Below, in pieces: positions 1,021 to 15,080 of a stretch of 19,093 bases of DNA. A program made the position numbers and the translations under genes. Origin of the DNA: a virus. Its lineage: Duplodnaviria; Heunggongvirae; Uroviricota; Caudoviricetes. The notes under the pieces are model-generated. The model saw only the letters and a program-made list of their open reading frames with translations. It had not been told where the DNA came from and ran no database searches. Position 1 is the stretch's first letter, and each line of letters begins with the position of its first letter. The stretch is taken from IMG/VR virus record IMGVR_UViG_2563366800_000003; one strand, written 5' to 3'.

Positions 1021-1066
1021 ATTCGTAATGCGAAGGTCGTAGGTTCGACTCCTATTATCGGCACCA
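1021..1066 (+). other. 46-nt 3' portion of tRNA-Thr(CGU) (thrW-type) without its 5' half; attachment-site core of the downstream integrative element
   Basis: ATTCGTAATGCGAAGGTCGTAGGTTCGACTCCTATTATCGGCACCA matches my recollection of the E. coli thrW 3' end (anticodon CGT, T-arm GGTTCGACTCC, acceptor TATCGGC + CCA). The preceding 30 nt do not form the matching 5' acceptor/D-arm (GCCGATA…), so this is not an intact tRNA gene. Confidence 0.7.
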
Positions 1067-1083
1067 TTCAAACATCTCCCCAA

Positions 1084-1165
1084 GTCTACTAAAGTCTTTC
1101 AAAACCCCTTATAATCCGCGTATTAAAGCCCCGTTCGTCTTTTGACGTCTACTAAAGTCCCTCAA
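1084..1165 (+). repeat. Two direct copies of GTCTACTAAAGTC(Y)(Y)TCAAAA (1084-1102 and 1147-1165) between the att core and int
   Basis: Seen directly in the sequence, 63 bp apart; the position fits accessory-factor or arm-type binding sites of an attP-derived region (inference). Confidence 0.45.
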
Positions 1166-1178
1166 AATCTACGGTCAG

Positions 1179-1231
1179 ATGGGGGTACTTATGGGGGTAT
1201 TTGCTGTTCGGTTTAGTGGAGGTACCCCCAA
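1179..1231. promoter_or_regulatory. Three TGGGGGTA motifs (two direct at 1180-1187 and 1192-1199, one inverted at 1223-1230) immediately upstream of int; candidate arm-type integrase binding sites
   Basis: Seen directly; a near-identical ATGGGGGTACTT(T)TGGGGGTAT block recurs at 17693-17718 near the proposed right end. A GGAGG Shine-Dalgarno (1218-1222) for int lies within this region. Confidence 0.45.
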
Positions 1232-2446
1232 GTGAAACTCAATGCCCGTCAAATAGACACAGCCAAGCCAAAAGAGAAGGCTTACAAGCTGGCCGATGGT
1301 GGCGGTTTGTATCTCTTGGTAAAACCTAATGGAGGTAAATACTGGCGACTTAAATATCGTGTAGCTGGTAAAGAGAAGCTATTGGCACTAGGTGTGTATC
1401 CTGAGGTTACTCTAGCCGATGCTCGGGCAAAACGTGAAGATGCGAAAAGAGGTATCGCTGGTGGTATCGATCCGATGGAAGCGAAACGAGAGGAAAAGAT
1501 TGCCCGGGAAACGCAGTTAAACAACACCTTCAAAGATATTGCCCTTGAGTGGCACAGCAGCAAATTAAAAAAATGGTCTGCTGGTTATGCTTCAGACATC
1601 CTCGAAGCCTTCAACAAAGATGTGTTCCCTTACATTGGCAAAAAACCAATCGCCGAAATCAAACCACTTGAACTTCTGAATGTGCTGCGGCGCATCGAGG
1701 GGCGCGGTGCTACAGAAAAAGCCAAAAAAGTGAGGCAGCGGTGCGGGGAAGTTTTCCGCTATGCAATAGTCACTGGTCGCGCAGAGTATAACCCTGCACC
1801 AGACCTTACTAGCGCGATGCAAGGCCATGAATCTAATCATTACCCTTTCCTTACAGCCAAAGAATTACCTGATTTTTTCAAGGCATTGTCCAGTTACTCA
1901 GGAAGCGCATTGGTTGTTATGGCGGCTCGTCTACTGATTATCACCGGCTTGCGGACTGGCGAACTACGTGGCGCATTATGGGATGAAATTGATTTCAACA
2001 AGGCTATCTGGGAGATACCCGCTTCACGTATGAAAATGCGGCGGCCTCATATTGTGCCATTGTCTGAGCAGGCTCTTTCGCTTATTGGGAAGATTAGAGA
2101 AATAACAGGCAATTACCCTCTTATGTTTCCCGGGCGCAATGATCCAAGGAAAACAATGAGCGAGGCCAGCATAAACCAAGTGTTTAAGCGCATTGGCTAC
2201 GCTGGACGTGTAACTGGTCATGGGTTCCGGCACACTATGAGTACGATTTTGCATGAGCAGGGCTATAACACCGCGTGGATAGAAACGCAGCTCGCTCACG
2301 TTGATAAGAACTCAATTCGTGGCACATACAACCATGCGCAATATCTGGATGGAAGGCGGGAGATGCTTCAATGGTATGCCGACTATATGGATTCTCTCGA
2401 GCATGGCGGAAATGTGGTGCATATGGTGTTTGAAAAACACGCATGA
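1232..2446 (+). CDS. int: P4-family tyrosine integrase (site-specific recombinase, phage integrase family)
   Basis: 404-aa ORF with GTG start 9 nt after GGAGG; N-terminal arm-binding-type region (LNARQIDTAKPKEKAYKLADGGGLYLLVKPNGGKYWRLKYR), catalytic-domain signatures HGFRHT and C-terminal RGTYNHAQYLDGRREMLQWYADYM typical of CP4-57 IntA/P4 Int relatives; sits directly next to a tRNA 3' fragment. Confidence 0.9.
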   Translation: MKLNARQIDTAKPKEKAYKLADGGGLYLLVKPNGGKYWRLKYRVAGKEKLLALGVYPEVTLADARAKREDAKRGIAGGIDPMEAKREEKIARETQLNNTFKDIALEWHSSKLKKWSAGYASDILEAFNKDVFPYIGKKPIAEIKPLELLNVLRRIEGRGATEKAKKVRQRCGEVFRYAIVTGRAEYNPAPDLTSAMQGHESNHYPFLTAKELPDFFKALSSYSGSALVVMAARLLIITGLRTGELRGALWDEIDFNKAIWEIPASRMKMRRPHIVPLSEQALSLIGKIREITGNYPLMFPGRNDPRKTMSEASINQVFKRIGYAGRVTGHGFRHTMSTILHEQGYNTAWIETQLAHVDKNSIRGTYNHAQYLDGRREMLQWYADYMDSLEHGGNVVHMVFEKHA

Positions 2447-2716
2447 AACAACTGGACAAGTATACAGAGGTTTACTAAAGTATAGGGGAGTAGATTGATA
2501 AAAACTCACAGAGGATTGCTATTTAACAGTTAGCCCTGGAGAAGGGCAATCGCTCTTTTATAAACGAAGGTGTATTGAGCCTTCTACGTCGCTGACAAAG
2601 CGGAATGTTCTTTAAAACTACTGGATGTCACGCCTAATAGCGTGATCCTGCCGAAATGCAGGGTAGCTCTACCCTTGTGGAGCAAACAAACCAAAACAAT
2701 CTGACTATCTTTTATA

Positions 2717-2751
2717 AAAGACCGCAATATGTTTTTCATATTGTGGTCTTT
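2717..2751. promoter_or_regulatory. Imperfect 15-bp inverted repeat (AAAGACCGCAATATG-TTTTT-CATATTGTGGTCTTT) in the AT-rich int-alpA intergenic region; candidate operator or terminator
   Basis: Seen directly; one mismatch in the stem; lies ~90 bp upstream of the alpA start. Confidence 0.3.
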
Positions 2752-2837
2752 GGCGTATTCGGCATTTGACGCAAATAAAACTCTCGCCATTCGTTGCAGG
2801 AGGGGGTTATTGCGTCATTAGTACAGGATATTAATAA

Positions 2838-3041
2838 ATGGCTAATTACAATTCATTAATTCGTCTCTCTGAAGTTCAAAGGCGAACTGGTTATAGCAAA
2901 GCATGGATTTATCGTCTTATTAGTCAGGGGAGGTTCCCTAAACAGGTAAAAATTGGAAGTCGGGCAATTGCTTTTGTTGAGTCTGAAATAGATGAATGGA
3001 TTGAGAAGTGTATATTAGAATCTAGAGACGAGATGGCCTGA
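2838..3041 (+). CDS. alpA: AlpA-family phage transcriptional regulator/excisionase-like DNA-binding protein
   Basis: 67-aa ORF RLSEVQRRTGYSKAWIYRLISQGRFPKQVKIGSRAIAFVESEIDEWI matches the AlpA helix-turn-helix pattern; position directly after int is typical of P4-like/PICI elements. Confidence 0.85.
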   Translation: MANYNSLIRLSEVQRRTGYSKAWIYRLISQGRFPKQVKIGSRAIAFVESEIDEWIEKCILESRDEMA

Positions 3042-3472
3042 TGGAAAAGAAAAACCGCCCATTACAGGCGGCTAATTCAGATATTCGTGTATCTGATGTT
3101 ACGCCCCTTACAAAATCCCTTCAAGCACCAAAGCGCACACCGAAAAAGCATCGTGCCAGAGTCTATATGCTGCGTACTGGTATAGAGGGATGGACAGAAA
3201 ATGACATTCTTCGCTACTGCCGTCTGTCTTCTGGTCGTAACTATGCAACAGAGTTAGAACGCCAGCTTGGAATCACTCTGGAGCGTATCGACGAAAAGAA
3301 TCCTGATGGTATCGGAACACACCTTCGCTACCGTTTCTCCTGCCGTGGTGATGTTCTGAAAGTGATCACTCATATTAACCATCTTGCGAACATAAATGAT
3401 CACAACGGACTTTCTCAGCAGGAAATTGCCGACATTCTGAAACTCTACCCGGACGCGTTTAACGCCGCCTAA
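3041..3472 (+). CDS. Hypothetical protein (143 aa), translationally coupled to alpA (TGATG overlap)
   Basis: ORF with start overlapping the alpA stop; no family recognised. Confidence 0.55.
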   Translation: MEKKNRPLQAANSDIRVSDVTPLTKSLQAPKRTPKKHRARVYMLRTGIEGWTENDILRYCRLSSGRNYATELERQLGITLERIDEKNPDGIGTHLRYRFSCRGDVLKVITHINHLANINDHNGLSQQEIADILKLYPDAFNAA

Positions 3473-3484
3473 CGGAGACTGAAA

Positions 3485-4318
3485 ATGAACATCGAAAAAA
3501 GCAGATTAATTTCTGAGGCTGCCCCTCATCTGAACGCCTCTCTGGGCACAATTAACGGTAATGAATTTGCCGCAATTGTCCCGGTTATTCCTGGTCATAT
3601 CGGTGGGCGTGAAACCAATATTGTTAGCGCAAAAGCGTTACACAAAGCGTTGGGCGTGGGAAAAGACTTCTCTACATGGATCACTGATCGCATCTCTGAA
3701 TATGACTTCACCATTGGGCACGATTACTCAGTCCATAAAACAATTTCCCCAAATTTGGGGAAAAGCCCGAATGGCGCGGCTTACAGCAAGATTAAGCAGT
3801 CTGGCAGACCCGGCAAAGACTATCTGTTAAGTGTCGGAATGGCGAAAGAACTGGCAATGATCGAACGCAATGATCAGGGTCGCGCTATCCGTCGTTATTT
3901 CATCCAGTGCGAGGAAGAATTACAGCGTAGCGTGCCTGAAATCGCCGCCCGCTATCGTCGCCAGCTAAAAGCCCGTATTAGTGCCGCAAACAACTTTAAG
4001 CCAATGTGCGATGCGCTGAATATGGCCCGTGCCGAGCAGGGGAAAACGACGCAGCAACACCACTACACAAACGAGAGCAATATGATTTCTCGTATCGTTC
4101 TTGGTGGGCTAACTGCTAAGCAGTGGGCGCGGATAAATGGCTATTCTGGCGAACCTCGCGACCATATGAACGCAGAACAGCTTGAGCACCTCTCATATCT
4201 CGAAAGCACCAATATCACGTTAATTGATATGGGCATGGAATATGAGCAGCGCAAAGGAGAACTCACCCGCTTGTCGCAACGCTGGCTCGCCAAGCGTCTG
4301 GAGGCGGTCCATGTTTAA
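3485..4318 (+). CDS. Phage antirepressor-like protein with AntA/AntB-type N-terminal domain
   Basis: 277-aa ORF; VSAKALHKALGVGKDFSTWITDRISEYDFTIGHDY fits the AntA/AntB antirepressor domain pattern (V.A..LH..L.....F..W...RI..Y.F....DY). Confidence 0.65.
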   Translation: MNIEKSRLISEAAPHLNASLGTINGNEFAAIVPVIPGHIGGRETNIVSAKALHKALGVGKDFSTWITDRISEYDFTIGHDYSVHKTISPNLGKSPNGAAYSKIKQSGRPGKDYLLSVGMAKELAMIERNDQGRAIRRYFIQCEEELQRSVPEIAARYRRQLKARISAANNFKPMCDALNMARAEQGKTTQQHHYTNESNMISRIVLGGLTAKQWARINGYSGEPRDHMNAEQLEHLSYLESTNITLIDMGMEYEQRKGELTRLSQRWLAKRLEAVHV

Positions 4319-4493
4319 GCCGACAGGAACACCACAACCTCAAAAACGCTACAAAGATGCCCACGGAGCACTCGTTACTGTCGAAAGCGTGTCTCACAAC
4401 CGAGTGACGTTTTATCGCGACGGGTATCAATCGCCATGCGTACAACCGCTGGCACGTTTCATGAAGGAGTTCGCGGAGGTTAACAAATGCTAA
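4311..4493 (+). CDS. Small hypothetical protein (60 aa), ATG overlapping the stop of the preceding gene
   Basis: ATGTTTAA overlap at 4311-4318; [60 protein letters not shown]; the track shows a longer frame from 4224 but coupling favours 4311. Confidence 0.4.
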   Translation: MFKPTGTPQPQKRYKDAHGALVTVESVSHNRVTFYRDGYQSPCVQPLARFMKEFAEVNKC

Positions 4494-5554
4494 CCGCCCA
4501 GAAGAAGATATTTTCACTGGCTGGTATGTCGCCAAAATCCAGCAATATGACAGCAAAGTCAGACATTAATACAGCAGATACAAGCAAAGTTTATCATTTT
4601 CTGGTGGTAGGAGCGGATGCCTTAACTATGTCAGAAATTACGGTCGATGGTGTTAGCGTTGAGAAGGTCAGCGGCTATGCCAGAGAATTTCTGGTCGTAG
4701 ATGGCTTTCTCTGCTCGTGTAGTGACTCCACAAAAACCTTCGTCCACGCGCGTGACGTTAACGAAATGAGCGCGATGTACTGTGCTTCTGGTTCTTCCAA
4801 TAGTGAGTTTTCGGAGTCCATAAAAAAGAGCTTGCCGTTATGCGGCAACACGGTTTATGGTTATAAGGCACCTCATAAAACGGGTGCCGGGATTGGCGTC
4901 CTGAAAATTCTGAAGGCGACATATGACGCGCCGAGCGTCTTTTTTTATGTCGTAGGTCTGACTCACCCATTTTTTGGGCGTTGGTGTATAATCCAGCGCC
5001 TTTGTCAATCAATGGTGGCTCAGGCGGGGGCTTCTTCGGAAGCGCCGGTATCCTTCAGAGCCGGTTACGCCAACCCTGTCTGGGCTACCACCAGCGAAAT
5101 TGGCGTTTCCGGTGGTAGCGTAACCTGCTATCTGAAGGAGGCTGCCACATGCTGGCTACTACCCCTACCCAAAAAACGCAATTTATCTGGATTATCGCCG
5201 CAGTTCGCCGCGATTGCCCGACAATTACCGCCAAAATTCATCATATTGCTGCCGAGTCTGAACGCGATGCTCGCCGTTCTCTGGTGCGCGATCACATCTG
5301 CTTTTTTGCTGGTCGTATCCGCATGGAGGTGGCACATGATTAAAACCTACGATGTGCATATGGATCCCCTCGAACGCACAAGCCAGATCATCACACTGAC
5401 AGAAGTGATTAACGACATTCTGGTGAGCAACTCTCCCTCACGAGACGAAAAACTGAAGGCGTTACTCGCGATATTGGACCTCGCCGTTCGTGACGTTCAT
5501 TTCCTGCTGGAAGGTGGACAAATGCCATGCAAAACGGGGGCAACCAATGAATAA
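4487..5554 (+). CDS. Uninterrupted 355-codon ORF, probably composite: plausible N-terminal ~145-aa hypothetical protein and a separate C-terminal small gene (5336-5554, 72 aa, GGAGG RBS) joined by low-quality run-on
   Basis: Good RBS (GGAGG, 4475-4479) before the ATG at 4487; the middle of the frame contains a terminator-like hairpin plus T-run (~4925-4946), a TATAAT-like hexamer (~4985-4990), and a W/C-rich improbable translation; a second gene with a strong RBS occupies another frame at 5149-5343. Confidence 0.35.
5149..5343 (+). CDS. Small hypothetical protein (64 aa)
   Basis: AAGGAGG 8 nt upstream of the ATG at 5149; its stop overlaps the next ATG (ATGATTAA at 5336-5343), indicating translational coupling. 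Confidence 0.45.
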   Translation: MLATTPTQKTQFIWIIAAVRRDCPTITAKIHHIAAESERDARRSLVRDHICFFAGRIRMEVAHD

Positions 5555-5741
5555 CTCAATTAATACCCCTCGCCTTACGTCCGCACTTCAATTAATCGAG
5601 CAAGCAGCGGCTGTCCCGGTTGCTGTCAGTCTTTCGGCTGAAGAAATGGACGCTGCTGATGTCGTGGATGCGATTAAAGCGTGCTCATCTTTGGTTAACG
5701 ATGCCCGTGCCGAGCTGGTAATTCTTGGGGGTGAAAAATGA
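5547..5741 (+). CDS. Small hypothetical protein (64 aa; track ORF 5490-5741 with internal start at 5547)
   Basis: ATGAATAA overlap with the upstream frame stop at 5552-5554 and a G-rich RBS; [64 protein letters not shown]. Confidence 0.5.
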   Translation: MNNSINTPRLTSALQLIEQAAAVPVAVSLSAEEMDAADVVDAIKACSSLVNDARAELVILGGEK

Positions 5742-6001
5742 ATATCAACTTAATTTATCGTCATCCGTGTGAGCTGGAAATTGAATCATTGCTGGGGCGC
5801 GAAGAGCCATATCCAGACACATTCACTCCCGCAGATTGCGCGACTGAACGGCTTACCAGAGCGCGCACAGGTCTGGTTCATGTGATGAATGAGATTGTTC
5901 CCTCGGTGGGAGGGGAACAGGCGACAGTAATCAATAGCTGGCTACAAAAAGTTACCTCCCTGATAGATATCGGTTTAATCGATGTGGAGAGTGCGAAATG
6001 A
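5738..6001 (+). CDS. Hypothetical protein (87 aa), ATGA-coupled
   Basis: Start overlaps the upstream stop (ATGA at 5738-5741); no family recognised. Confidence 0.55.
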   Translation: MNINLIYRHPCELEIESLLGREEPYPDTFTPADCATERLTRARTGLVHVMNEIVPSVGGEQATVINSWLQKVTSLIDIGLIDVESAK

Positions 6002-6219
6002 CCAACATCCAGCTCATTGAAGCGCAATGTCGCATCGAACAGGTTCAGACTGTTTTAGGGTTCTGGCTTGAAGGGGCCAGCCCCAGCAACAGAGACAAGT
6101 TAATGATTGGCGCGGTTATGTCACTGCTCAATGGCGTACCAGAAGCTATTCAGGAAGCGGACGAATTGTTGGGCAAATATGAGTTACAGAATCATTCAGG
6201 CGAGGCGAAACATGAATAA
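5998..6219 (+). CDS. Hypothetical protein (73 aa), ATGA-coupled
   Basis: Start overlaps the upstream stop (ATGA at 5998-6001); no family recognised. Confidence 0.55.
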   Translation: MTNIQLIEAQCRIEQVQTVLGFWLEGASPSNRDKLMIGAVMSLLNGVPEAIQEADELLGKYELQNHSGEAKHE

Positions 6220-6814
6220 TTTCTTAACTTTCCATGCAGAAGCAACGCCTGACGGCGTAAACATCATGTACCGCAGCAACGATGGCATGACAGAACGCGT
6301 TGATACCGTCTCATATATTGATGCCGTAAATCGTCTGGATGCCGGGGATTATGACGATAAACCAGATGAAGGCATGTTTATACATCTCGCTATTGCCAGT
6401 GGCGGCAACCAGGGATATTTCGATTACACATCACAGCATCACGTGATTATGTGGCGCTGGCTGATAGCAACAGCATTCATCAATGAAATGAGAAAGGAAA
6501 ACGGCACCGTCAGCATTATTGATGACAGTGGCAATCATTCCGTGGTTTCTGTTTATTCCAATGGCATCGTCGCCATGCCGCTGTATCCAGTAGCAGAGCG
6601 CCTCGCTATGGCAAACAACATTGAGGGCGCAATGATCGAGAAATATGGTGTTGATGTCGGAACAAATAATGCCATCATTTTTTACAGCAACATGTTCGAT
6701 GTCGAACAGGGAACACTCACTTCGTTTGGGCGAGAAGTGCTTGCCGATCTTCACAACAGCTTTATTGCCGAACTAAACGAAAACGGCATCCCAGAAGCAC
6801 CAGTGACGCACTAA
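6212..6814 (+). CDS. Hypothetical protein (200 aa; track ORF 6107-6814 with probable start at 6212)
   Basis: ATG at 6212 is preceded by GAGG and overlaps the upstream stop (ATGAATAA); begins MNNFLTFHAEATPDGV…; no family recognised. Confidence 0.6.
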   Translation: MNNFLTFHAEATPDGVNIMYRSNDGMTERVDTVSYIDAVNRLDAGDYDDKPDEGMFIHLAIASGGNQGYFDYTSQHHVIMWRWLIATAFINEMRKENGTVSIIDDSGNHSVVSVYSNGIVAMPLYPVAERLAMANNIEGAMIEKYGVDVGTNNAIIFYSNMFDVEQGTLTSFGREVLADLHNSFIAELNENGIPEAPVTH

Positions 6815-6826
6815 ACGGGGGCCAGA

Positions 6827-9583
6827 ATGCGAAACATTGATCTTATCCGTCAGGTTATCAGTGCGTCTGAAAACAACTGGCCTCATGTGCTGGGCTGCCT
6901 GAACATAAATGTCCCTGACTCTCCGCGCCGTCATGCTCCCTGCCCTGCATGTGGGGGCAAAGATCGATTCCGGTTCGATGACAACGGGCGCGGTAGCTTC
7001 ATCTGTAATCAGTGCGGCGCTGGTGATGGGCTGGATTTAATTAAACGCGTAAATAACTGTGACACAACAGAGGCGGCGCTGCTTGCCGCTGATGTTCTGG
7101 GTATTGATTACCGGACAACGGAAACACCAGAAGCCACCAGCCAGAAACGGGAACAACTGGAAACCGAGCGCCAGCGACGCGAACAGGAGCGCCTGAAAAG
7201 GGCAGAGAAGGACGAACAACAAAGACGGGATACGTTTTCCCGTCAGTTTGATGACATGCGCAGAAAGGCTGTAAACGGCAAATCTGATTATCTGGTTGCG
7301 AAAGGGGTAGGTGATTTTACATTCCCAGTGTTGCCCGATGGATCTCTGTTGCTGGCGCTGGTGGATAAATCCGGCGCAGTCACAGCAGCACAGACTATTA
7401 CCTCACATGGTGAAAAAAGACTCCTGACAGGTTCAGCAAAGCGAGGGGCATATCACGCCATAAACGCACCAGAAACAACACAGAGCATCTTAATCGCAGA
7501 AGGGCTGGCAACGGCATTATCTGCCCATTTAATTCGTCCAGAATCGCTGACAGTGGCGGCGATTGATGCCGGGAACCTGTTATATGTCGCCCAGGTACTG
7601 CGGGATAAATTTCCTTCAGCACAAATCATCATTGCTGCGGATAACGACCACAGCGAAGGAAGACAAAACACGGGGAGAATAGCAGCAGAAAAAGCAGCTT
7701 TATCTGTTTCTGGATGGGTGGCATTACCCCCGACAGATCACAAAGCAGACTGGAATGATTACCACCAAAAACACGGCATTAAATGCGCCACAGAAGCGTT
7801 CAATAAGTCAATGTACCAACCACAGGGTAATGGCGTGAAACAGCAGCCACAGACCATTGAGGGAAGCGATTTTAAGGTTATGGATACCGACCCACTGAAA
7901 CCAAGAATAGAAAGCCGCGAGGATGGTATTTATTGGGTATCTCCGAGAGCTGACAGCCAGAGTGGAGAAATCATCAATAACGAAAGCTGGTTATGTTCTC
8001 CGTTAAGCGTTATCGGTACTGGCAGAGACGATAAAGACCAGTATCTCATTCTTCGCTGGCTGTCGTTTGGTTCTGAAACGCCGACAACCGCTGCCATTCC
8101 ACTGGCTGATATTGGTGAACGTGAAGGATGGCGCACACTTAAAGCTGGTGGGGTAAATGTCACGACCAAAAGCAGCCTCAGAGCAATACTGGCAGACTGG
8201 CTACAACGCAGTGGCTCTCGTGAATTGTGGCGTGTTGCTCATGCCACTGGCTGGCAATGCGGAGCGTACATCATGCCTGATGGGGAAATCATCGGAACAC
8301 CTGAAAATCCTGTGCTGTTCAGCGGGAGAAGCTCAGCCGCAGCCGGATATACCGTCTCAGGGAGCGCGAAAAGCTGGCGTGATAACGTGGCGCGTCTGGC
8401 CTTTGGTAACTATTCAATGATGACCGGGATCGGCGCAGCACTGGCAGCGCCATTGATTGGGCTGGTGGGCGCTGACGGGTTCGGCATTCATTTCTATGAG
8501 CAGTCGAGCGCAGGTAAGACCACCACGGCAAACGTGGCGAGCAGCTTATACGGCAACCCTGATTTATTGCGGCTGACGTGGTACGGAACCGCGCTGGGGC
8601 TGGCAAATGAAGCCGCCGCCCACAATGACGGACTAATACCGCTTGATGAAGTTGGTCAGGGCGCTGATCCTGTCAGTGTTTCACAGTCTGCCTATGCGTT
8701 ATTTAACGGTGTAGGGAAACTGCAAGGCGCTAAAGATGGTGGAAACCGGGATCTAAAACGCTGGCGTACAGTGGCAATCAGCACTGGAGAAATGGATTTA
8801 GAAACATTTATCGCTACTTCCGGGCGAAAAACCAAAGCCGGGCAACTGGTGCGACTGCTGAATATTCCGTTGAGTAAAGCAGTACGCTTTCACGATTACC
8901 AGAACGGAAAACAGCACGCAGACGCACTGAAAGACGCTTACCAGCATCACCACGGCGCAGCCGGGCGTGAGTGGATTAAATGGCTGGCAGACCACCAGCA
9001 ACAGGCAATTAAAACTGTTCGTGACTGCGAAAGCAGATGGAGAAGTCTGATCCCATCCGATTATGGTGAGCAGGTTCACCGTGTAGCCGCGCGATTTGCC
9101 ATTCTGGAGGCCGCATTGCTGTTAGGCGAGGTTGTAACAGGCTGGGATGCTCAGACATGCCGTGATGCGATACAGCACAGCTATAACGCATGGTTGCGCG
9201 AGTTCGGCACAGGTAACAAAGAACATCAGCAGATTATTGAACAAACGGAGGCATTTCTTAATGCCTATGGGCTTAGCCGTTTTGCACCATTTCCATACAG
9301 CCCGGCAGATTTGCCCATCAAAGATTTGGCCGGATACCGTCAGCGTGGAGAACATGACGAAAGCCCAATGATTTTCTACACATTCCCGGCCACATTTGAA
9401 AAGGAGATCGCATGTGGTTTCAACGCAAAACAGTTTGCTGAAGTGTTGAAAAAAGCCGGGATGCTAACCCCACCAAACAGCGGTCGTGGATACCAAAGAA
9501 AATCACCACGTATTCAGGGACGACAAATAAACGTTTATGTACTCAATTACCAGCCAGGAGATTATAACTCATCTGAAGAATGA
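6827..9583 (+). CDS. Primase-helicase replication protein (zinc-binding N-terminus, Toprim primase domain, C-terminal P-loop NTPase/DUF927-like domain), P4 alpha/PICI Pri-Rep type
   Basis: 918-aa ORF; CxxC…CxxC zinc ribbon (CPACGGKDRF…FICNQCGAG); Toprim signature (ILIAEGLATA … IIIAADNDHSEGRQ); P-loop-like SAGKTT with downstream hydrophobic-DE Walker B (GLIPLDEVGQ); iteron array immediately 3'. Confidence 0.9.
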   Translation: MRNIDLIRQVISASENNWPHVLGCLNINVPDSPRRHAPCPACGGKDRFRFDDNGRGSFICNQCGAGDGLDLIKRVNNCDTTEAALLAADVLGIDYRTTETPEATSQKREQLETERQRREQERLKRAEKDEQQRRDTFSRQFDDMRRKAVNGKSDYLVAKGVGDFTFPVLPDGSLLLALVDKSGAVTAAQTITSHGEKRLLTGSAKRGAYHAINAPETTQSILIAEGLATALSAHLIRPESLTVAAIDAGNLLYVAQVLRDKFPSAQIIIAADNDHSEGRQNTGRIAAEKAALSVSGWVALPPTDHKADWNDYHQKHGIKCATEAFNKSMYQPQGNGVKQQPQTIEGSDFKVMDTDPLKPRIESREDGIYWVSPRADSQSGEIINNESWLCSPLSVIGTGRDDKDQYLILRWLSFGSETPTTAAIPLADIGEREGWRTLKAGGVNVTTKSSLRAILADWLQRSGSRELWRVAHATGWQCGAYIMPDGEIIGTPENPVLFSGRSSAAAGYTVSGSAKSWRDNVARLAFGNYSMMTGIGAALAAPLIGLVGADGFGIHFYEQSSAGKTTTANVASSLYGNPDLLRLTWYGTALGLANEAAAHNDGLIPLDEVGQGADPVSVSQSAYALFNGVGKLQGAKDGGNRDLKRWRTVAISTGEMDLETFIATSGRKTKAGQLVRLLNIPLSKAVRFHDYQNGKQHADALKDAYQHHHGAAGREWIKWLADHQQQAIKTVRDCESRWRSLIPSDYGEQVHRVAARFAILEAALLLGEVVTGWDAQTCRDAIQHSYNAWLREFGTGNKEHQQIIEQTEAFLNAYGLSRFAPFPYSPADLPIKDLAGYRQRGEHDESPMIFYTFPATFEKEIACGFNAKQFAEVLKKAGMLTPPNSGRGYQRKSPRIQGRQINVYVLNYQPGDYNSSEE

Positions 9584-9607
9584 GCTTCTTCATGTGCGTA
9601 GAAAAGG

Positions 9608-9722
9608 TGTTGGTTCAGTTGGTTCAGTTGGTTCAATTTGTAAAGAGTATTGTTTTATAAGGATTTTATTCTTTTTATTGAACCAACACTGAACCAACAA
9701 CACGGTATTTTGAACCAACACA
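9608..9722. repeat. Iteron-type origin module: three tandem (G)TTGGTTCA repeats (9608-9637), a 41-bp AT-rich spacer, three inverted TGAACCAAC repeats (9679-9719)
   Basis: Seen directly; sits immediately downstream of the primase-helicase gene, the usual place for a satellite/plasmid ori; an inverted copy occurs at 15638-15762. Confidence 0.6.
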
Positions 9723-10040
9723 ATGTGACTGAATTGATGCGCACAACACCTGGCTGGCATCAGAGAGTGTTTTACGAGACTTTCGTAAAATCCTGTGTAC
9801 AAGGGCGTGACGTTTTTGAAAGTAAGCACTACGAAATTTTCGTAGTTCAAAAAACAGCCTTTGAGAAGTTGTTATGCCTGTTCAGCAAACCATCCGCATA
9901 GCTGATCGCGAATCAAATTACCAATGGAGCCAGAAGCAAGGGCAGAACTGGAAAGCGCCTGCCGTGAAGAGTAATGCGACACCATAAATATAGTTTTTAG
10001 AGTCCATAAAAAACCTGTCAAAACCTGACATACAGAACGA

Positions 10041-10072
10041 TGCCACCAGCTACTGAGTGGTGGCATTTTTTT
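10041..10072 (+). terminator. Rho-independent terminator (8-bp stem TGCCACCA/TGGTGGCA, 9-nt loop, 7 T's)
   Basis: Perfect stem and T-run seen directly at 10041-10072. Confidence 0.6.
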
Positions 10073-10128
10073 GTGCTATTTGTTTCATATTTTGCAATTA
10101 CGATGATGAATATTGCGATTTGTGAAAC

Positions 10129-10152
10129 TATAATAACTGTTGTTTTATACAG
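10129..10152 (+). promoter_or_regulatory. Candidate -10 hexamer TATAAT (10129-10134) followed by a LexA-box-like CTGT-N8-ACAG (10137-10152) upstream of the cargo operon
   Basis: aaCTGTtgttttatACAGtt fits the CTGT-N8-ACAG core of SOS boxes with a mostly AT spacer; flanking bases deviate from the TACTGT…ACAGTA consensus; no convincing -35. Confidence 0.35.
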
Positions 10153-10167
10153 TTCTAAGGGGGCGTT

Positions 10168-10341
10168 ATGGCTATTTCAGTAAAGCCAGTATTGATAAGT
10201 GAGAAGCAAATGGAAGCGATAAAGAAAATTCAGGAGGAGCAGCGTAAAAAATCAGAGGTAGGAGTTGCGCCAACGATCCACGAAATTGCTCGGGGATTAA
10301 TGGATAAGGCGCTGGCTTACACTTTAACTGGACGTGGGTAA
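10168..10341 (+). CDS. Small hypothetical protein (57 aa), first gene of the cargo operon; possibly a small DNA-binding or adaptor protein
   Basis: Strong RBS (AAGGGGGCG) before the ATG at 10168; [57 protein letters not shown]; below the 60-aa cut-off of the ORF track; its stop lies 4 nt before the next ATG. Confidence 0.5.
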
Positions 10342-10345
10342 ATCA

Positions 10346-11782
10346 ATGGCTACGTGGCAACAGGGTATTAATTCTGGTGGTTTTCTGGCTGGCATCGGTA
10401 CGCAAAATGAGAATGCGCCAAAGGCAAGCGACATTAACGCAACGCTTGGTCTGATCCGCGAAAACAATGAACTGGCTCGCTCAGGTGCAAATAACGTTGG
10501 TCTGACCGCGTTACGTGGTCTGGCTGGAGTTGCTGATATTTATAAGCAGCAGCAACAGCAGGAGCGTAAAGCGGCATTCCAGAAAGGTTATGCAGATGCT
10601 TATGCGTCCGGCGACAGGGAGCAGATGCGTAATCTTATTACAGCATTCCCAGAAGAGTTTGAGGAAGTCCGTAAAGGGATGAGTTATGTCGATGATGCTC
10701 AAAGGGATGATTATGGCAATCTGGCGCTCAAAGCACAGGTAGCCTCATCGCTTGGTCCGGGAGCATTTGGCAGGTTCATGATGGATAATGAGCAGGAGAT
10801 GCGTCGTTTAGGTATCCCTCCAGAAACTATTGCTGAAATGCAGGTTAATGACCCGCAGGGCTTCCAGCATTTCGCAGGTAATCTGGCGTTGTTTTCTCTC
10901 GGTCATGAGAAGTACTTCGATATCAAAGATCGAATGGAGGGTCGGGATATTGAGCGTGGCGAGTTGGCAGAGACGATTCGCAGCAATAAAGCTGGGGAAG
11001 GTTTACAGGCGCAAAGCATTGCTGTTAGCCGTGAAAACTCTCTGCGCACTGCTGGAGGTGCTGTTCCTGCATCTGTTAAAGAATATCAATATTTCAACAG
11101 CCTGTCTCCAGAGCAACAAAAGACATATCTTCGTGTTCGAGGCCGTCCTGCTGCTGGCGGGGAGAATGTTGTGCAACTGGCAGATGGTAGAACGGTAACG
11201 GTTGGTCGGAAGCTTCACGGCGCTGGTGCTAATGCGTTCTACGAAGGAATAGACAACGAGGGCAATATGATTCGCGTCCCCGCAAGTTCTATTGCTGCTC
11301 CGGCTACATCGGCAGCTAATGCGCAGAATTACGAAATGAAGAAAGATCTTGATGCAATTTCTGGCGCATCAATTGACGATCTTGGCTTCATGACAGGTAT
11401 TACAGGTTCTTCAGGTTCTTTTGCTCTTGGTGCAGATATTCGTAGCCGGGCATCTGGTGTTGAGGAGAGGAAACTATACAACGCTGCACAGCGAATCATG
11501 GGCAAAATGCAAAATCAGGGGATTGCGGCAGCCCGAGATATGGGGGCATCTGGCATCAACACCGAAGCAGAGGCCAATAGGTATTTTCAGGGTATGCCAA
11601 AGCCTGATTTCTCAAGCCCTGAAGCACTACAACAATCAATGCGCGACATTCAGCAATATACCGACAATTACAACCAGCAATATAACGTTAATGTTGGTAA
11701 ATCTCAGCGGCAGCAATCTCAACCTGCACAGGTATCACAGCCAGCAGCCAGCAGTAACTTTTCTTCACTATGGGGTGATTAA
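10346..11782 (+). CDS. Hypothetical protein (~478 aa; track frame opens at GTG 10334), low-complexity Gly/Ala/Gln-rich, predicted largely helical, no catalytic motif recognised
   Basis: Long ORF with consistent coding character; stop TAA overlaps the next start (TAATG at 11780-11784); N-terminal Gly-rich segment, Q-rich tail (…[19 protein letters not shown]). Confidence 0.8.
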
Positions 11783-13887
11783 TGGCTAAAGCATGGAAAG
11801 ATGTTATCGCTTCTCCACAGTATCAGGCGTTAGCACCAGAACAAAAAGCGCAGGCTCAGGAGCAATACTTCAATGAAGTCGTGGCCCCGCAAGCCGGAGA
11901 AAGTGTAGAGCAGGCTAAGCAGGCTTTTTATGCTGCCTATCCACTGCCATCAACGAATGAAATAGACCGATCCCAATCAGCAACTCAAAATATTCAACAT
12001 ACATCATCTGATAATTCTCTTGCGTCAGGGTATGCAAAGTTAGCTACTCAGCAAAGAGAGGGGCTTGAGCGTTCAGCAGAACAGGGAGCCAGTCTTGGGG
12101 CTGCGATGCGCGATGCTATAACAGGCGAAAGCCGAATGACTCCAGAGATGGAGAGACTGCAAAATGTCGCCTCTGCCCCAGAATTGAACTCACTAAGCAT
12201 GGATGCCTTAAAGGCTGGATGGTCTCAACTTTTCGGCTCTGACGCGTCTCAGGAAAAGATTCTTCAGGGAATGGGGGCGACATTAAGGCAGGATGAGAAG
12301 GGGAATACTATCGTTTCTCTGCCATCAGGTGATTATGCCCTAAACAAGCCGGGTTTATCACCGCAAGACCTGACTTCGTTTCTTGCTAATGCGTTGGCGT
12401 TTACACCAGCGGGCAGGGCTGGAACGGTGCTTGGTGCCATAGGAAAATCAGCAGCTACAGATTTAGCACTACAGGGAGCCACCAGCCTTGCTGGTGGAGA
12501 AGATATTGATCCGTTACAAACGGTAATTTCTGCTGGCATTGGTGGTATTGGTAAGGGGCTGGAAAATACAGCGAGTGCGGTTTCGAGGGCTGTTCGTGGT
12601 GATATGTCGCCTGAAGCAAAGGCTGCTGTCGACTTTGCATCGGAAAGAAATCTGCCGTTAATGACCAGTGACATGCTGAAAGATAAAACCTTTATGCAGA
12701 GTCAGGCTCAGACATTAGGCGAAAGACTTCCTTTTTTTGGAACCGGTAAGAACCGACTGAATCAACAACAAGCACGAGAAAATTTAGTCAGAACATTTAG
12801 CGATGGTCTGGGGGGAATTTCAGATAAACAGCTTTATGAGTCTGCGACTAAAGGGCAGCAAAAATTCATTGAGGCAGCAGGAAAGCGATATAACCGCATA
12901 ATTGACGCTATGGGGGATACCCCTGTCGATCTCTCAAACACGGTAAAAGCTATCGACAATCAGATTGCCGTGTTAAGCCGACCGGGCAAATCTCAGGATA
13001 GAGCCGCGGTAAAAGTCTTGCAGCAATTTAAAGACGATATCACCAGCGGACCCAATGACCTGCGTCTGGCGAGAGAAAACAGAACTGACCTTCGAAAGCG
13101 GTTCATGAATTCAAACGAGACTGTTGATAAAGACACGCTCCAGAAAGCCAGCGATATTGTCTACAAGGCATATACAGCGGATATGAAAAAAGCAGTATCC
13201 CAAAAACTAGGCTCAGAAGAAGCTACCAATATGTCTAGGGTTGATCGCTCATGGGCTAGATTCAATGACATGATGGGAAGAACGCGCGTTCAAAAGGCAA
13301 TAGCCAGCGGCAAGGCCACGCCTGAGGATGTAACAAAACTCGTTTTTAGCCAAAACCCATCAGAACGTTCTCAGCTTTACAGGCTTCTGGATGACAATGG
13401 TAGGCAAAACGCACGAGCCGCCATAGTTCAGAATGCTGTAGATAAGGCGACTGATCCGTCTGGAAATATCAGTGTTGAGAAGTTTATTAATGCGTTACAC
13501 CGGAACAGGAAGCAATCAGCAACTTTCTTTAAAGGCGTATATGGAAAGGAACTGGACGGCGTTATTAAATACCTCAATGATACAAGACACGCGGCAAAAG
13601 CGAACGTTCAAAACTTAAATGGTCAGCAGCTTTATGGATTGTTAGTTGGTGGTGGCATCATAAACGCAGCAGTATTAGCGGGGATGCTAAAAACGGCTGC
13701 GTTTGTTGTTCCTGCTGCTGGTGTCGTAGGCGGAGCAGCGAAGGCATACGAAAGCCCTGTTATACGAAATGCCTTGTTACGTCTGGCAAATACGCCAAAA
13801 GGTAGCACAGCATATGACAGAGCGATCAGTACGGTCACACAATCGCTCACCAGAGTCGCACAGGCATCACAAAAAGAATCTCAATAA
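11782..13887 (+). CDS. Hypothetical protein (701 aa), helical/low-complexity with a C-terminal Gly/Ala-rich hydrophobic hairpin (residues ~617-653); candidate membrane-inserting protein
   Basis: Translationally coupled to the upstream gene, GGGGTGA RBS; hydrophobic LYGLLVGGGIINAAVLAGMLKTAAFVVPAAGVVGGAA near the C-terminus; no nucleotide-binding or nuclease motif seen. Confidence 0.8.
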   Translation: MAKAWKDVIASPQYQALAPEQKAQAQEQYFNEVVAPQAGESVEQAKQAFYAAYPLPSTNEIDRSQSATQNIQHTSSDNSLASGYAKLATQQREGLERSAEQGASLGAAMRDAITGESRMTPEMERLQNVASAPELNSLSMDALKAGWSQLFGSDASQEKILQGMGATLRQDEKGNTIVSLPSGDYALNKPGLSPQDLTSFLANALAFTPAGRAGTVLGAIGKSAATDLALQGATSLAGGEDIDPLQTVISAGIGGIGKGLENTASAVSRAVRGDMSPEAKAAVDFASERNLPLMTSDMLKDKTFMQSQAQTLGERLPFFGTGKNRLNQQQARENLVRTFSDGLGGISDKQLYESATKGQQKFIEAAGKRYNRIIDAMGDTPVDLSNTVKAIDNQIAVLSRPGKSQDRAAVKVLQQFKDDITSGPNDLRLARENRTDLRKRFMNSNETVDKDTLQKASDIVYKAYTADMKKAVSQKLGSEEATNMSRVDRSWARFNDMMGRTRVQKAIASGKATPEDVTKLVFSQNPSERSQLYRLLDDNGRQNARAAIVQNAVDKATDPSGNISVEKFINALHRNRKQSATFFKGVYGKELDGVIKYLNDTRHAAKANVQNLNGQQLYGLLVGGGIINAAVLAGMLKTAAFVVPAAGVVGGAAKAYESPVIRNALLRLANTPKGSTAYDRAISTVTQSLTRVAQASQKESQ

Positions 13888-13891
13888 CTGG

Positions 13892-13916
13892 TTAGCCATG
13901 GATGGCTAATTTTTGT
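13892..13916 (+). terminator. Rho-independent terminator (TTAGCCA-TGGA-TGGCTAA followed by TTTTTGTTCTTT) ending the cargo operon; overlaps the 3' end of the convergent membrane-protein gene
   Basis: 7-bp stem, 4-nt loop, T-rich tail directly after the 701-aa stop codon. Confidence 0.5.
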
Positions 13917-14325
13917 TCTTTGCTCTCATCCATAGGTAAAGAAGGGAAAGAACAAGACAAAAAACAGAGAATAGATAACCTACCTCATATGGTGCGCCAA
14001 AAAAATTAGCTATTGATACGGGCAAAAAAGCTGAAGCGATCAAAATTGAAAGGCAAAAAATAAGCCCAGTAATATAGTTTATTAAATTCTTAAATGAGAA
14101 ACGTTTTGCTTGATTTACGGTCTTAACGAACGATCGCTTAACGACGGATAAAAGCAAATAGATGGCGACAGTTGCTAATACCCCTTTCCACCAGTCTGGA
14201 TATAGTTTTGCGACAATCAGACCAAGTAAAACCATGATGACAGCCTGAGCATTCACACCAACCCTCCCTTTAGCTTTGTTTAGAATGGCAATCATCATAT
14301 ATCCAAGACATGGCATTTGGTACAT
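13906..14325 (-). CDS. Small polytopic inner-membrane protein (predicted 4 TM helices; 139 aa from the first ATG, ~117 aa if the GTG at 14259 with GGGAGGG RBS is used), convergent to the cargo operon
   Basis: Hydrophobic segments VIMVLLGLIVAKLY, VLATVAIYLLLSVV, ITGLIFCLSILIASAFLPV, YLFSVFCLVLSLLYLWM; strongly AT-rich codon usage unlike its neighbours. Confidence 0.65.
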   Translation of the reverse strand: MYQMPCLGYMMIAILNKAKGRVGVNAQAVIMVLLGLIVAKLYPDWWKGVLATVAIYLLLSVVKRSFVKTVNQAKRFSFKNLINYITGLIFCLSILIASAFLPVSIANFFGAPYEVGYLFSVFCLVLSLLYLWMRAKNKN

Positions 14326-14443
14326 AGCTTGGGTCGGGATTTCAAATCCGCTCCCAGTTGATGGGGTCGTTACAGTACGCGCATATCCGCTTTATGTGAA
14401 ACAGGAAGATTTTTCTGATATCACTGCCACAGCAAAACACCAA

Positions 14444-14467
14444 TTTCGAGACAAGTACGCGCGCGAG
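14444..14467. repeat. Copy a of the TTTCG(A/G)GACAAGTACG(Y)GCGCG repeat family
   Basis: Seen directly; related copies at 14731-14758 and 16120-16150, shorter CAGTACGCGC/CAGTACGCAC variants at 14374-14384 and 14505-14518. Confidence 0.5.
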
Positions 14468-14730
14468 GGGTATCAGTTGCAAAATTTTTTGCAACTGCGT
14501 CCGACCAGTACGCACACGATGGCGGGGGATACCATGAAACTGTTCTCTACATAAGTCAGAGTGGTGGTGATGTGTTGATTATCGGCGTATATGCGCACAG
14601 GACGCGCTATGACAATGTTTTATGCGGGTACACCAATCACATGTATCTGGTGTGATAAATCGCGTTACATGACATCTCATGTTGTGCTGGTGGTTATCAC
14701 GACGTTCTGAATCTGGCTTTTGTCTGATAT

Positions 14731-14758
14731 TTTGCGACAAGTACGTGCGCGTAGCATC
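14731..14758. repeat. Copy b of the GACAAGTACG(Y)GCGCG(CG)TAGCA repeat family
   Basis: TTTGCGACAAGTACGTGCGCGTAGCATC; shares the upstream TCTGATAT motif with copy a. Confidence 0.5.
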
Positions 14759-14779
14759 GACAGCATACACATTGGATAT

Positions 14780-15001
14780 TCATTTTGTGACCAATGCGAT
14801 AAGTAGCGGGATAAGCATTGATAAAATCAACAGGCCGATGATCCACTTTTGATTTTCACTGGCCTTATCTCTATTTTCATCAATCTTATCAATAATTCGA
14901 CGCTCCAAGCCGTGCATATCACCGCGAATGGCAATCATCTCATTGCGAACATCCGAGAAGTGGTTGGCTTGATGTTCAATGTGTGGCGTTCTGCCTTTCA
15001 T
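14780..15001 (-). CDS. Small protein (73 aa) with charged helical N-terminus and a single C-terminal transmembrane anchor; XhlA-like architecture
   Basis: …DKIDENRDKASENQKWIIGLLILSMLIPLLIALVTK; GAGG 9 nt upstream of the ATG; family assignment is by architecture only. Confidence 0.5.
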   Translation of the reverse strand: MKGRTPHIEHQANHFSDVRNEMIAIRGDMHGLERRIIDKIDENRDKASENQKWIIGLLILSMLIPLLIALVTK

Positions 15002-15080
15002 TCCTGATCCTCACCTATCGTCACCACCTGCTGGTGTATAAAGGTATTGGCCCAAGCAGCTTTCCAATGGGCACTCATGT

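Follow-up and report, generated by a model that had tools for sequence, protein, structure and literature searches.

A predicted LexA operator at the promoter of an ejection-protein operon in an EcCIMP1-like phage satellite

EcCIMP1 is a PICI of E. coli MP1 that is excised and transferred by Kapi1, a P22-like temperate phage that can be induced by mitomycin C (PMC11773190). AlpA is the master activator in Gram-negative PICIs (PMC11773190), and the trigger for alpA is the helper, not DNA damage itself (PMC11773190, PMC6092414). In Staphylococcus aureus, regulation of the SaPI packaging operon (operon I) by LexA has been demonstrated experimentally (Ubeda et al. 2007, as cited in PMC3152322). 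Both mobile elements with LexA sites and a satellite operon under LexA control are already known, and the arrangement described here is sensible and not unprecedented. Our literature search found no report of a LexA site on a Gram-negative PICI or on the promoter analysed below, and a search with the exact box sequence returned no match. The EcCIMP1 paper itself mentions neither LexA nor the operon promoter (PMC11773190).

The window, by which we mean the whole 19,093-nt stretch of DNA analysed (IMG/VR record IMGVR_UViG_2563366800_000003), carries two copies of the att core TCCTATTATC where 0.01 would be expected, and these delimit an island of ~16.7 kb (1050-17786). Pfam and PHROG assignments give the island order as integrase, AlpA, AntA, Ash/Icd, primase, operon, PerC-type region and pRiA4b-ORF3. 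The hallmarks of a PICI are present: the integrase, AlpA and the primase/replication module are co-directional, and the size falls within ~15-20 kb. Genes for capsid, terminase or lysis proteins were not found in the island. The order is nearly identical to that of EcCIMP1 (int, alpA, antA, ash/icd, DUF927 primase, PerC, pRiA4b-ORF3), the att core is the same, and an identical promoter and box precede the small first gene of the operon. The two elements differ in cargo: EcCIMP1 carries four genes (DUF2824, gp7-like, gp20-like and gp16-like with an SLT domain), the window the gp20-like and gp16-like genes only. The initial annotation had likened the operon to genes that a satellite expresses when its helper is induced. 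Gene order and att cores agree with this, identifying the element as an EcCIMP1-like PICI and a close relative of EcCIMP1, the helper of which is mitomycin C-inducible. The coordinates of the features are collected in Table 1.

Table 1. Features of the satellite island and of its ejection-protein operon (positions in the window)
Feature	Position	Strand	Basis or remark
Left att core TCCTATTATC	1050..1059	+	core reported for EcCIMP1
Tyrosine integrase	1232..2446	+	profile search
AlpA-family regulator	2838..3041	+	Pfam Phage_AlpA 7.5e-20
Satellite primase/helicase (Zn-ribbon, Toprim, DUF927)	6827..9583	+	profile search
Iterons GTTGGTTCA x3 and inverted TGAACCAAC x3	9607..9721	.	
Intrinsic terminator (hairpin 10040-10066 and T-run), closes upstream unit	10040..10074	+	
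Imperfect inverted repeat GTTTCATATTTTGCAAT / ATTGCGATTTGTGAAAC	10082..10128	.	17-nt arms, 76% complementary
Weak -35-like hexamer ATGAAT	10106..10111	+	3/6 matches, 17-nt spacer
-10 hexamer TATAAT	10129..10134	+	invariant in 15-lineage alignment
Predicted LexA (SOS) box, 20-mer AACTGTTGTTTTATACAGTT	10135..10154	.	HI 8.19; core conservation; same in EcCIMP1
RBS AAGGGGG	10157..10163	+	sequence reading
First gene, 57-aa conserved protein	10168..10341	+	always first gene, whatever the cargo
P22 gp20 homologue (DNA ejection/translocase)	10346..11782	+	Pfam Inj_translocase 3e-82; phrog_917 6e-199
P22 gp16 homologue (DNA transfer/ejection)	11782..13887	+	phrog_770 2e-163; RefSeq 'injection protein'
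Right att core TCCTATTATC	17777..17786	+	core reported for EcCIMP1

Directly past the primase stop, the GTTGGTTCA iterons, spaced 9 nt apart, face the inverted TGAACCAAC copies across an AT-rich gap, and this region is probably the replication origin of the satellite. A 23-nt repeat, ATTTCGAGACAAGTACGCGCGCG, occurs three times in the accessory region (14443-14465, 14729-14751 and 16119-16141). An Rfam search returned noise only. The island has mosaic surroundings, with an IS integrase-core fragment outside the left att site (308-673) and a type IV toxin-antitoxin pair, CbtA/CbeA, outside the right one (18174-18853). In strain 510016 (locus L001) the same island interrupts a prophage DNA methyltransferase gene (1482-1892 and 20332-20968), near tRNA and lysis genes. 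The island in that strain is therefore helper-embedded, an arrangement known for PICIs (PMC10111431).

The operon was examined for its gene content. The gp20 homologue shares 64-67% identity with gene 20 of P22-like phages, ST104-like ones included. A comparison with bacteriocin operons, also drawn in the initial annotation, proved wrong and was rejected on gene content, the operon encoding ejection proteins of the P22 gp20/gp16 type; no toxin or PADLOC matches were found among the cargo genes. Tai tail-assembly-inhibition systems were weighed as well, and nothing linked the cargo to Tai. The genes that follow the conserved promoter and the 57-aa gene vary by lineage (L005, L007, L009, L025 and others): the cargo is gp14/gp7/gp20/gp16-SLT in EcCIMP1, gp20 and gp16 in the window, an SLT and a Dit-like protein in Klebsiella, a 108-aa protein with a 1050-aa tape measure protein in Erwinia/Pantoea, and 605-aa and 168-aa proteins without assignment in Raoultella. 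Those cargo proteins that can be identified are phage tail or DNA-delivery proteins. In the literature on satellites with ejection or tape-measure proteins, the operon was not found described beyond EcCIMP1. That the same cassette carries a different genome-delivery cargo according to the host is a more unusual point than the LexA site. ETEC H10407 (L161) has the whole cassette, from the promoter through the small gene to gp20/gp16, behind a primase of the DUF5906 type and not DUF927, which indicates that the cassette moves as a unit and passes from one satellite backbone to another. In that strain gp20 carries an internal stop.

A sigma-70 consensus scan of positions 9600-10400 did not find a full promoter, because the -35 element is weak. 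We call a predicted promoter for the operon because of the invariant TATAAT, the upstream terminator and conservation across the family; the terminator directly upstream means that this promoter heads a separate transcription unit. With no full sigma-70 promoter it may need an activator, and it may be silent without one, in which case release of LexA would be insufficient alone. The arms of the inverted repeat (10082-10098 and 10112-10128) bracket the -35 region, and the TTTCAT-N4-TGCAAT pairs are kept family-wide, in every related promoter. The repeat is a candidate operator for a second, non-LexA regulator, either the 57-aa protein or AlpA.

Immediately downstream of the -10 hexamer we read a 16-bp palindromic CTGT-N8-ACAG core, CTGTTGTTTTATACAG, at 10137-10152, composed of CTGT (10137-10140), the spacer TGTTTTAT and ACAG (10149-10152). 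The motif occurs once in the window. The initial annotation had reported this motif at the promoter, where it is indeed found, just past TATAAT, but had put 3 nt between the two; the gap to CTGT is 2 nt (AA), and the 20-mer at 10135-10154 abuts the hexamer at 10129-10134. A distance of 15 nt, given there as separating the motif from the RBS, is instead that from ACAG to the ATG at 10168 (13 nt from the end of the 20-mer), and AAGGGGG begins 4 nt past ACAG. The 15-nt distance from ACAG to ATG is comparable to that of Salmonella SOS genes, which have box-to-ATG distances of 13-21 nt (nlhH 13, umuD 15, yebG 17, dinI 19 and sulA 21; PMC8072944). Overlap with the putative promoter was confirmed, in that the box covers the predicted start site and a terminator lies upstream.

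The 20-mer was scored with the heterology index (HI). Because this index is additive, the HI matrix (Lewis/PSOSP) could be recovered exactly by regressing 141 published site/HI pairs, taken from the E. coli K-12 CTG-N10-CAG sites of PSOSP Table S1 (PMC12527982), on position-by-base indicators. The recovered matrix gave a maximum residual of 5e-5 and a hold-out error of 8e-5, and the consensus TACTGTATATATATACAGTA scores 0. With this matrix the site at 10135-10154 has an HI of 8.19 and would rank ~20th among the listed K-12 sites, for which the table gives values of 4.31 for recA, 6.11 for uvrB, 8.32 for lexA box 2, 8.61 for ftsK, 8.80 for uvrD and 12.09 for polB (PMC12527982). It falls below both binding thresholds, the classical one (HI <15) and the end of the PSOSP Mean-Shift 'binding' cluster (~13.6), and so lies inside that cluster; the PSOSP classification is reported to agree 100% with 24 tested K-12 sites (PMC12527982). 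The matrix check proposed in the initial annotation, in which a low-scoring site would have spoken against LexA, thus places the box among proven E. coli operators. Because the spacer differs, a search for the perfect LexA consensus with up to 3 mismatches found no match; the appropriate test is the HI matrix.

A pure chance match in an AT-rich intergenic region was considered at this point. The bare CTGT-N8-ACAG pattern is expected 0.18 times per window and appeared at least once in 35 of 200 shuffles, so that these eight letters alone are weak evidence. The full 20-mer, on the other hand, is significant. By exact calculation an HI of 8.19 or less has P = 2e-7 per position, which corresponds to 0.004 sites per window, or ~1 per 4.6 Mb, and to 3e-5 sites in the 102-nt intergenic stretch at its own base composition. 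Given also how widely the site is kept, across hundreds of genomes and beyond the genus (see below), coincidence is a very improbable explanation, effectively refuted by score and conservation.

Further LexA-like sites were recorded in the window and in related loci. The remaining four CTG-N10-CAG sites of the window have HI values of 12.9-26. The one at 2450-2469 (AACTGGACAAGTATACAGAG, HI 12.9) was rejected, since chance alone gives 0.12 such sites per window; it is located just past the integrase stop, where two genes converge, and is not conserved in EcCIMP1. An EcCIMP1 alpA reporter, the stated -449 bp extent of which would span the equivalent of 2450-2469, was not induced by DNA damage alone (PMC11773190). 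The methyltransferase gene of strain 510016 has a strong LexA-like site, TACTGTAAAAATATCCAGTT (HI 5.5), at its start (L001 1490-1509). Tandem LexA boxes, TACTGTGTTTTTATACAGTC (HI 6.2) followed by TACTGTTCATAATCACAGCT, occur in related islands whose main promoter has no canonical box (L046 1038-1079; L084, L128, L137; L164 1638-1679). The tandem boxes precede a two-gene module that matches the PADLOC candidate defence system PDC-M18 A+B and is located between SSB and the small gene. We count them as context in favour of LexA control in the window. Three metagenomic E. coli-type loci have an exact dinD-type box, AACTGTATATAAATACAGTT (HI 3.3), 2.5-3 kb downstream of the small gene (L085 5464, L098 5679 and L100 6056).

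Within E. coli the 60-nt promoter was present in 499 of 5426 complete genomes (~9%). The 44 E. coli-type loci gathered from genomes, IMG/VR and metagenomes represent 17 promoter haplotypes, and among them 15 of the 60 columns upstream of the -10 vary, as compared with none of the 6 columns of TATAAT and none of the 16 of the core. Variation of the box is limited to flank position 1 (A or G; HI 8.19 or 9.53), and the lowest-identity copies keep GACTGTTGTTTTATACAGTT (HI 9.53). In E. coli the spacer varies no more than the half-sites do, a degree of constraint beyond what LexA alone would require. In E. coli UPEC129 (L162, 3037-4930) an ISEc53 element with a ClbS/DfsB gene has inserted in the spacer of the box, with an 8-bp duplication (TGTTTTAT), parting the -10 from the operon.

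The 57-aa gene also heads the post-primase operon in Serratia, Klebsiella, Raoultella, Erwinia, Pantoea, Lonsdalea, Rahnella, Leclercia and Chimaeribacter. The promoters are recognisably alike, with two TTTCAT-N4-TGCAAT elements, TATAAT and then nACTGTAT. The Serratia box, TACTGTGTCTATATACAGTT, has an HI of 6.32 and retains CTGT and ACAG; a further group has (A/G)ACTGTATCGTTATACAGTG (HI 10.0/11.3), and Erwinia, Pantoea and Lonsdalea have TACTGTATAAAATAACAGGA (HI 7.37; cluster range 7.4-9.0). On the first-gene tree these canonical boxes form two separate clusters. The Escherichia/Serratia cluster alone contains three spacers (TGTTTTAT, ATCGTTAT and GTCTATAT; HI 6.3-11.3). Half-sites that are kept while spacers drift are the pattern predicted by selection for LexA binding.

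About half of 131 loci instead read TACTGTATAAATATCAGGrGG, that is CTG-N9-CAG, with an HI >14. This one-base-short form, CTGTATAAATATCAG, was found in Klebsiella, Raoultella, Rahnella, Chimaeribacter and some Pantoea, and by its score it should not bind LexA. A short variant, TACTGTATAAATATCAGG, lies 7-30 nt upstream of the ATG in L005, L009-L011, L014-L017, L020-L024 and many IMG/VR and metagenome loci. The short sites are a LexA consensus from which the A of box position 15 is missing: of all single insertions, that A always scored best and brought the HI to 3-8, while the same procedure applied to 238 background CTG-N9-CAG sites never gave a value below 7.5 (median 16). Being one A from the consensus, the family either has a LexA box as its ancestor or stays within one indel of having one, and a single-base indel separates predicted binders from predicted non-binders. 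Parsimony on the first-gene tree, which rests on ~55 residues of a cassette that recombines, favours an older short form with the canonical spacing gained twice. The Leclercia copies are decayed, with two core mismatches. The short and decayed relatives suggest that LexA control is a lineage-specific add-on and not a fixed property of this promoter family, and that the operon works without it in those lineages.

Loci that lack a canonical box still retain the left half, CTGTAT. Part of the conservation is therefore due to something else, for example the transcription start, the leader or a different factor. This raises an alternative in which the box is a relic or a neutral site: LexA would perhaps bind it weakly with no meaningful effect, AlpA, a helper-encoded factor or the inverted repeat would exert control, and CTGTAT...CAG would be kept as a start site or leader beside the RBS. 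Such an account fits the retention of CTGTAT whatever the state of the box, the predicted non-binding form in about half of the relatives, the decay in Leclercia, the weak -35 with an operator-like repeat upstream, and the fact that the known switch of these satellites is alpA and not SOS (PMC11773190, PMC6092414). It fits poorly with an HI within the range of bound K-12 sites, with canonical spacing being retained together with diverged spacers in two separate clades, and with the distribution in E. coli, where the canonical promoter outnumbers the short type by 499 genomes to just 2. A repressor bound over +1 is furthermore hard to square with zero effect. We therefore consider a relic or neutral site unlikely.

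The palindrome might alternatively be the operator of another protein, for example an autoregulating 57-aa protein or a regulator encoded by the helper phage or the satellite, its likeness to a LexA box being coincidental. The first gene stays with the promoter whatever the cargo, and the AlphaFold model of its product (pLDDT 74), in which an extended N-terminal segment is followed by two helices, is that of what is possibly a ribbon-helix-helix DNA binder, a class that usually autoregulates. The protein gave no useful match in Pfam, PHROGs, PADLOC, a PDB profile search or a Foldseek search with the AlphaFold model, and so has no family, PDB or fold match to back this role. Its N-terminal segment (VKPVL(I/L)S), which would be the part that reads DNA, hardly varies, yet both the spacing of the palindrome (N10 vs N9) and the spacer sequence vary by lineage; the family-wide TTTCAT-N4-TGCAAT repeats would suit an invariant reader better. 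For this reason we think that the 57-aa protein, if it binds DNA, binds the inverted repeat rather than the LexA-like element. In addition, short variants that are a LexA consensus minus one base (HI 3-8 after insertion vs at least 7.5 in the background) would be unexpected for an unrelated operator. An operator for some other protein is accordingly quite improbable.

We regard it as probable, judging from the sequence, that 10135-10154 is a functional SOS (LexA) operator of the three-gene ejection-protein operon. From the observed sequence, score, position, gene content and conservation pattern we infer LexA binding, repression, SOS induction and the following timing logic. In an undamaged cell a LexA dimer at 10135-10154, over the start site, would block RNA polymerase. 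Upon DNA damage RecA would be activated, LexA would cleave itself and the operon would be derepressed. The same SOS signal would induce a P22-like helper prophage, and the gp20 and gp16 homologues of the satellite would thus be on hand while helper capsids assemble and fill. A second input probably gates the promoter, as suggested by the conserved inverted repeat over the -35 region and the weak -35.

A broader reading is offered tentatively, as a possibility that we doubt more than we favour. A portable cassette composed of the inverted-repeat operator, TATAAT, the LexA box and the 57-aa regulator may drive interchangeable genome-delivery proteins matched to the tail type of the helper, these being P22 gp14/7/20/16, a tape measure protein, or SLT and Dit. 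Enterobacterales satellites might then bring their own SOS-timed ejection machinery, with a single-base indel toggling the LexA input between lineages.

If the box acts as a LexA operator, EcCIMP1-type PICIs would have two inputs, the helper through AlpA and DNA damage through LexA on a virion-protein operon. This would mirror the staphylococcal SaPIs and would suggest that unrelated satellites have converged on the same regulatory logic. Control by LexA would further provide a handle on why these satellites carry their own ejection proteins and when these are made, which bears on two traits of EcCIMP1, its unexplained low transfer rate and its superinfection-immunity phenotype. With the promoter present in ~9% of complete E. 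coli genomes, SOS-inducing antibiotics could in that case widely affect the expression of these genes.

The predicted operator can be compared with three kinds of known LexA-controlled system. Like the middling-strength chromosomal operators of lexA (box 2), ftsK, uvrD and ruvAB, it has a CTGT-N8-ACAG core, an HI of 8-9 and an overlap with the core promoter. Those operators control DNA repair and cell-cycle genes and are conserved across Enterobacterales, whereas the box described here is on a mobile element and in some lineages only. Mobile-element genes under LexA control include 186 tum, the Gifsy antirepressors and those behind colicin promoters; the phage examples control lysogeny switches, and colicin promoters have two overlapping LexA boxes ahead of genes for toxin, immunity and lysis proteins. 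The Gifsy dinI gene is LexA-controlled as well (PMC8072944). With temperate-phage and colicin genes the satellite operon would share the borrowing of host LexA by a mobile element, timing expression with DNA damage. It differs from a colicin or bacteriocin SOS operon in having a single box and ejection proteins in place of tandem overlapping boxes and toxin, immunity and lysis genes.

SaPI operon I, the closest functional precedent, is also carried by a phage satellite, lies downstream of the replication module, encodes virion-related proteins and has a LexA operator, which in the present case is predicted. In both systems SOS induction of the helper would coincide with expression of satellite late genes, again a prediction for the operon studied here, and in neither is the master switch SOS-sensitive. 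The SaPI operon belongs to a Gram-positive host with a different LexA motif, and it contains terS and capsid-size genes (cp1/cp2), whereas gp20 and gp16 homologues and a small protein are encoded here. By analogy, the likeness to SaPI operon I is one of regulatory logic only, shared by satellites whose genes and LexA motifs are unrelated.
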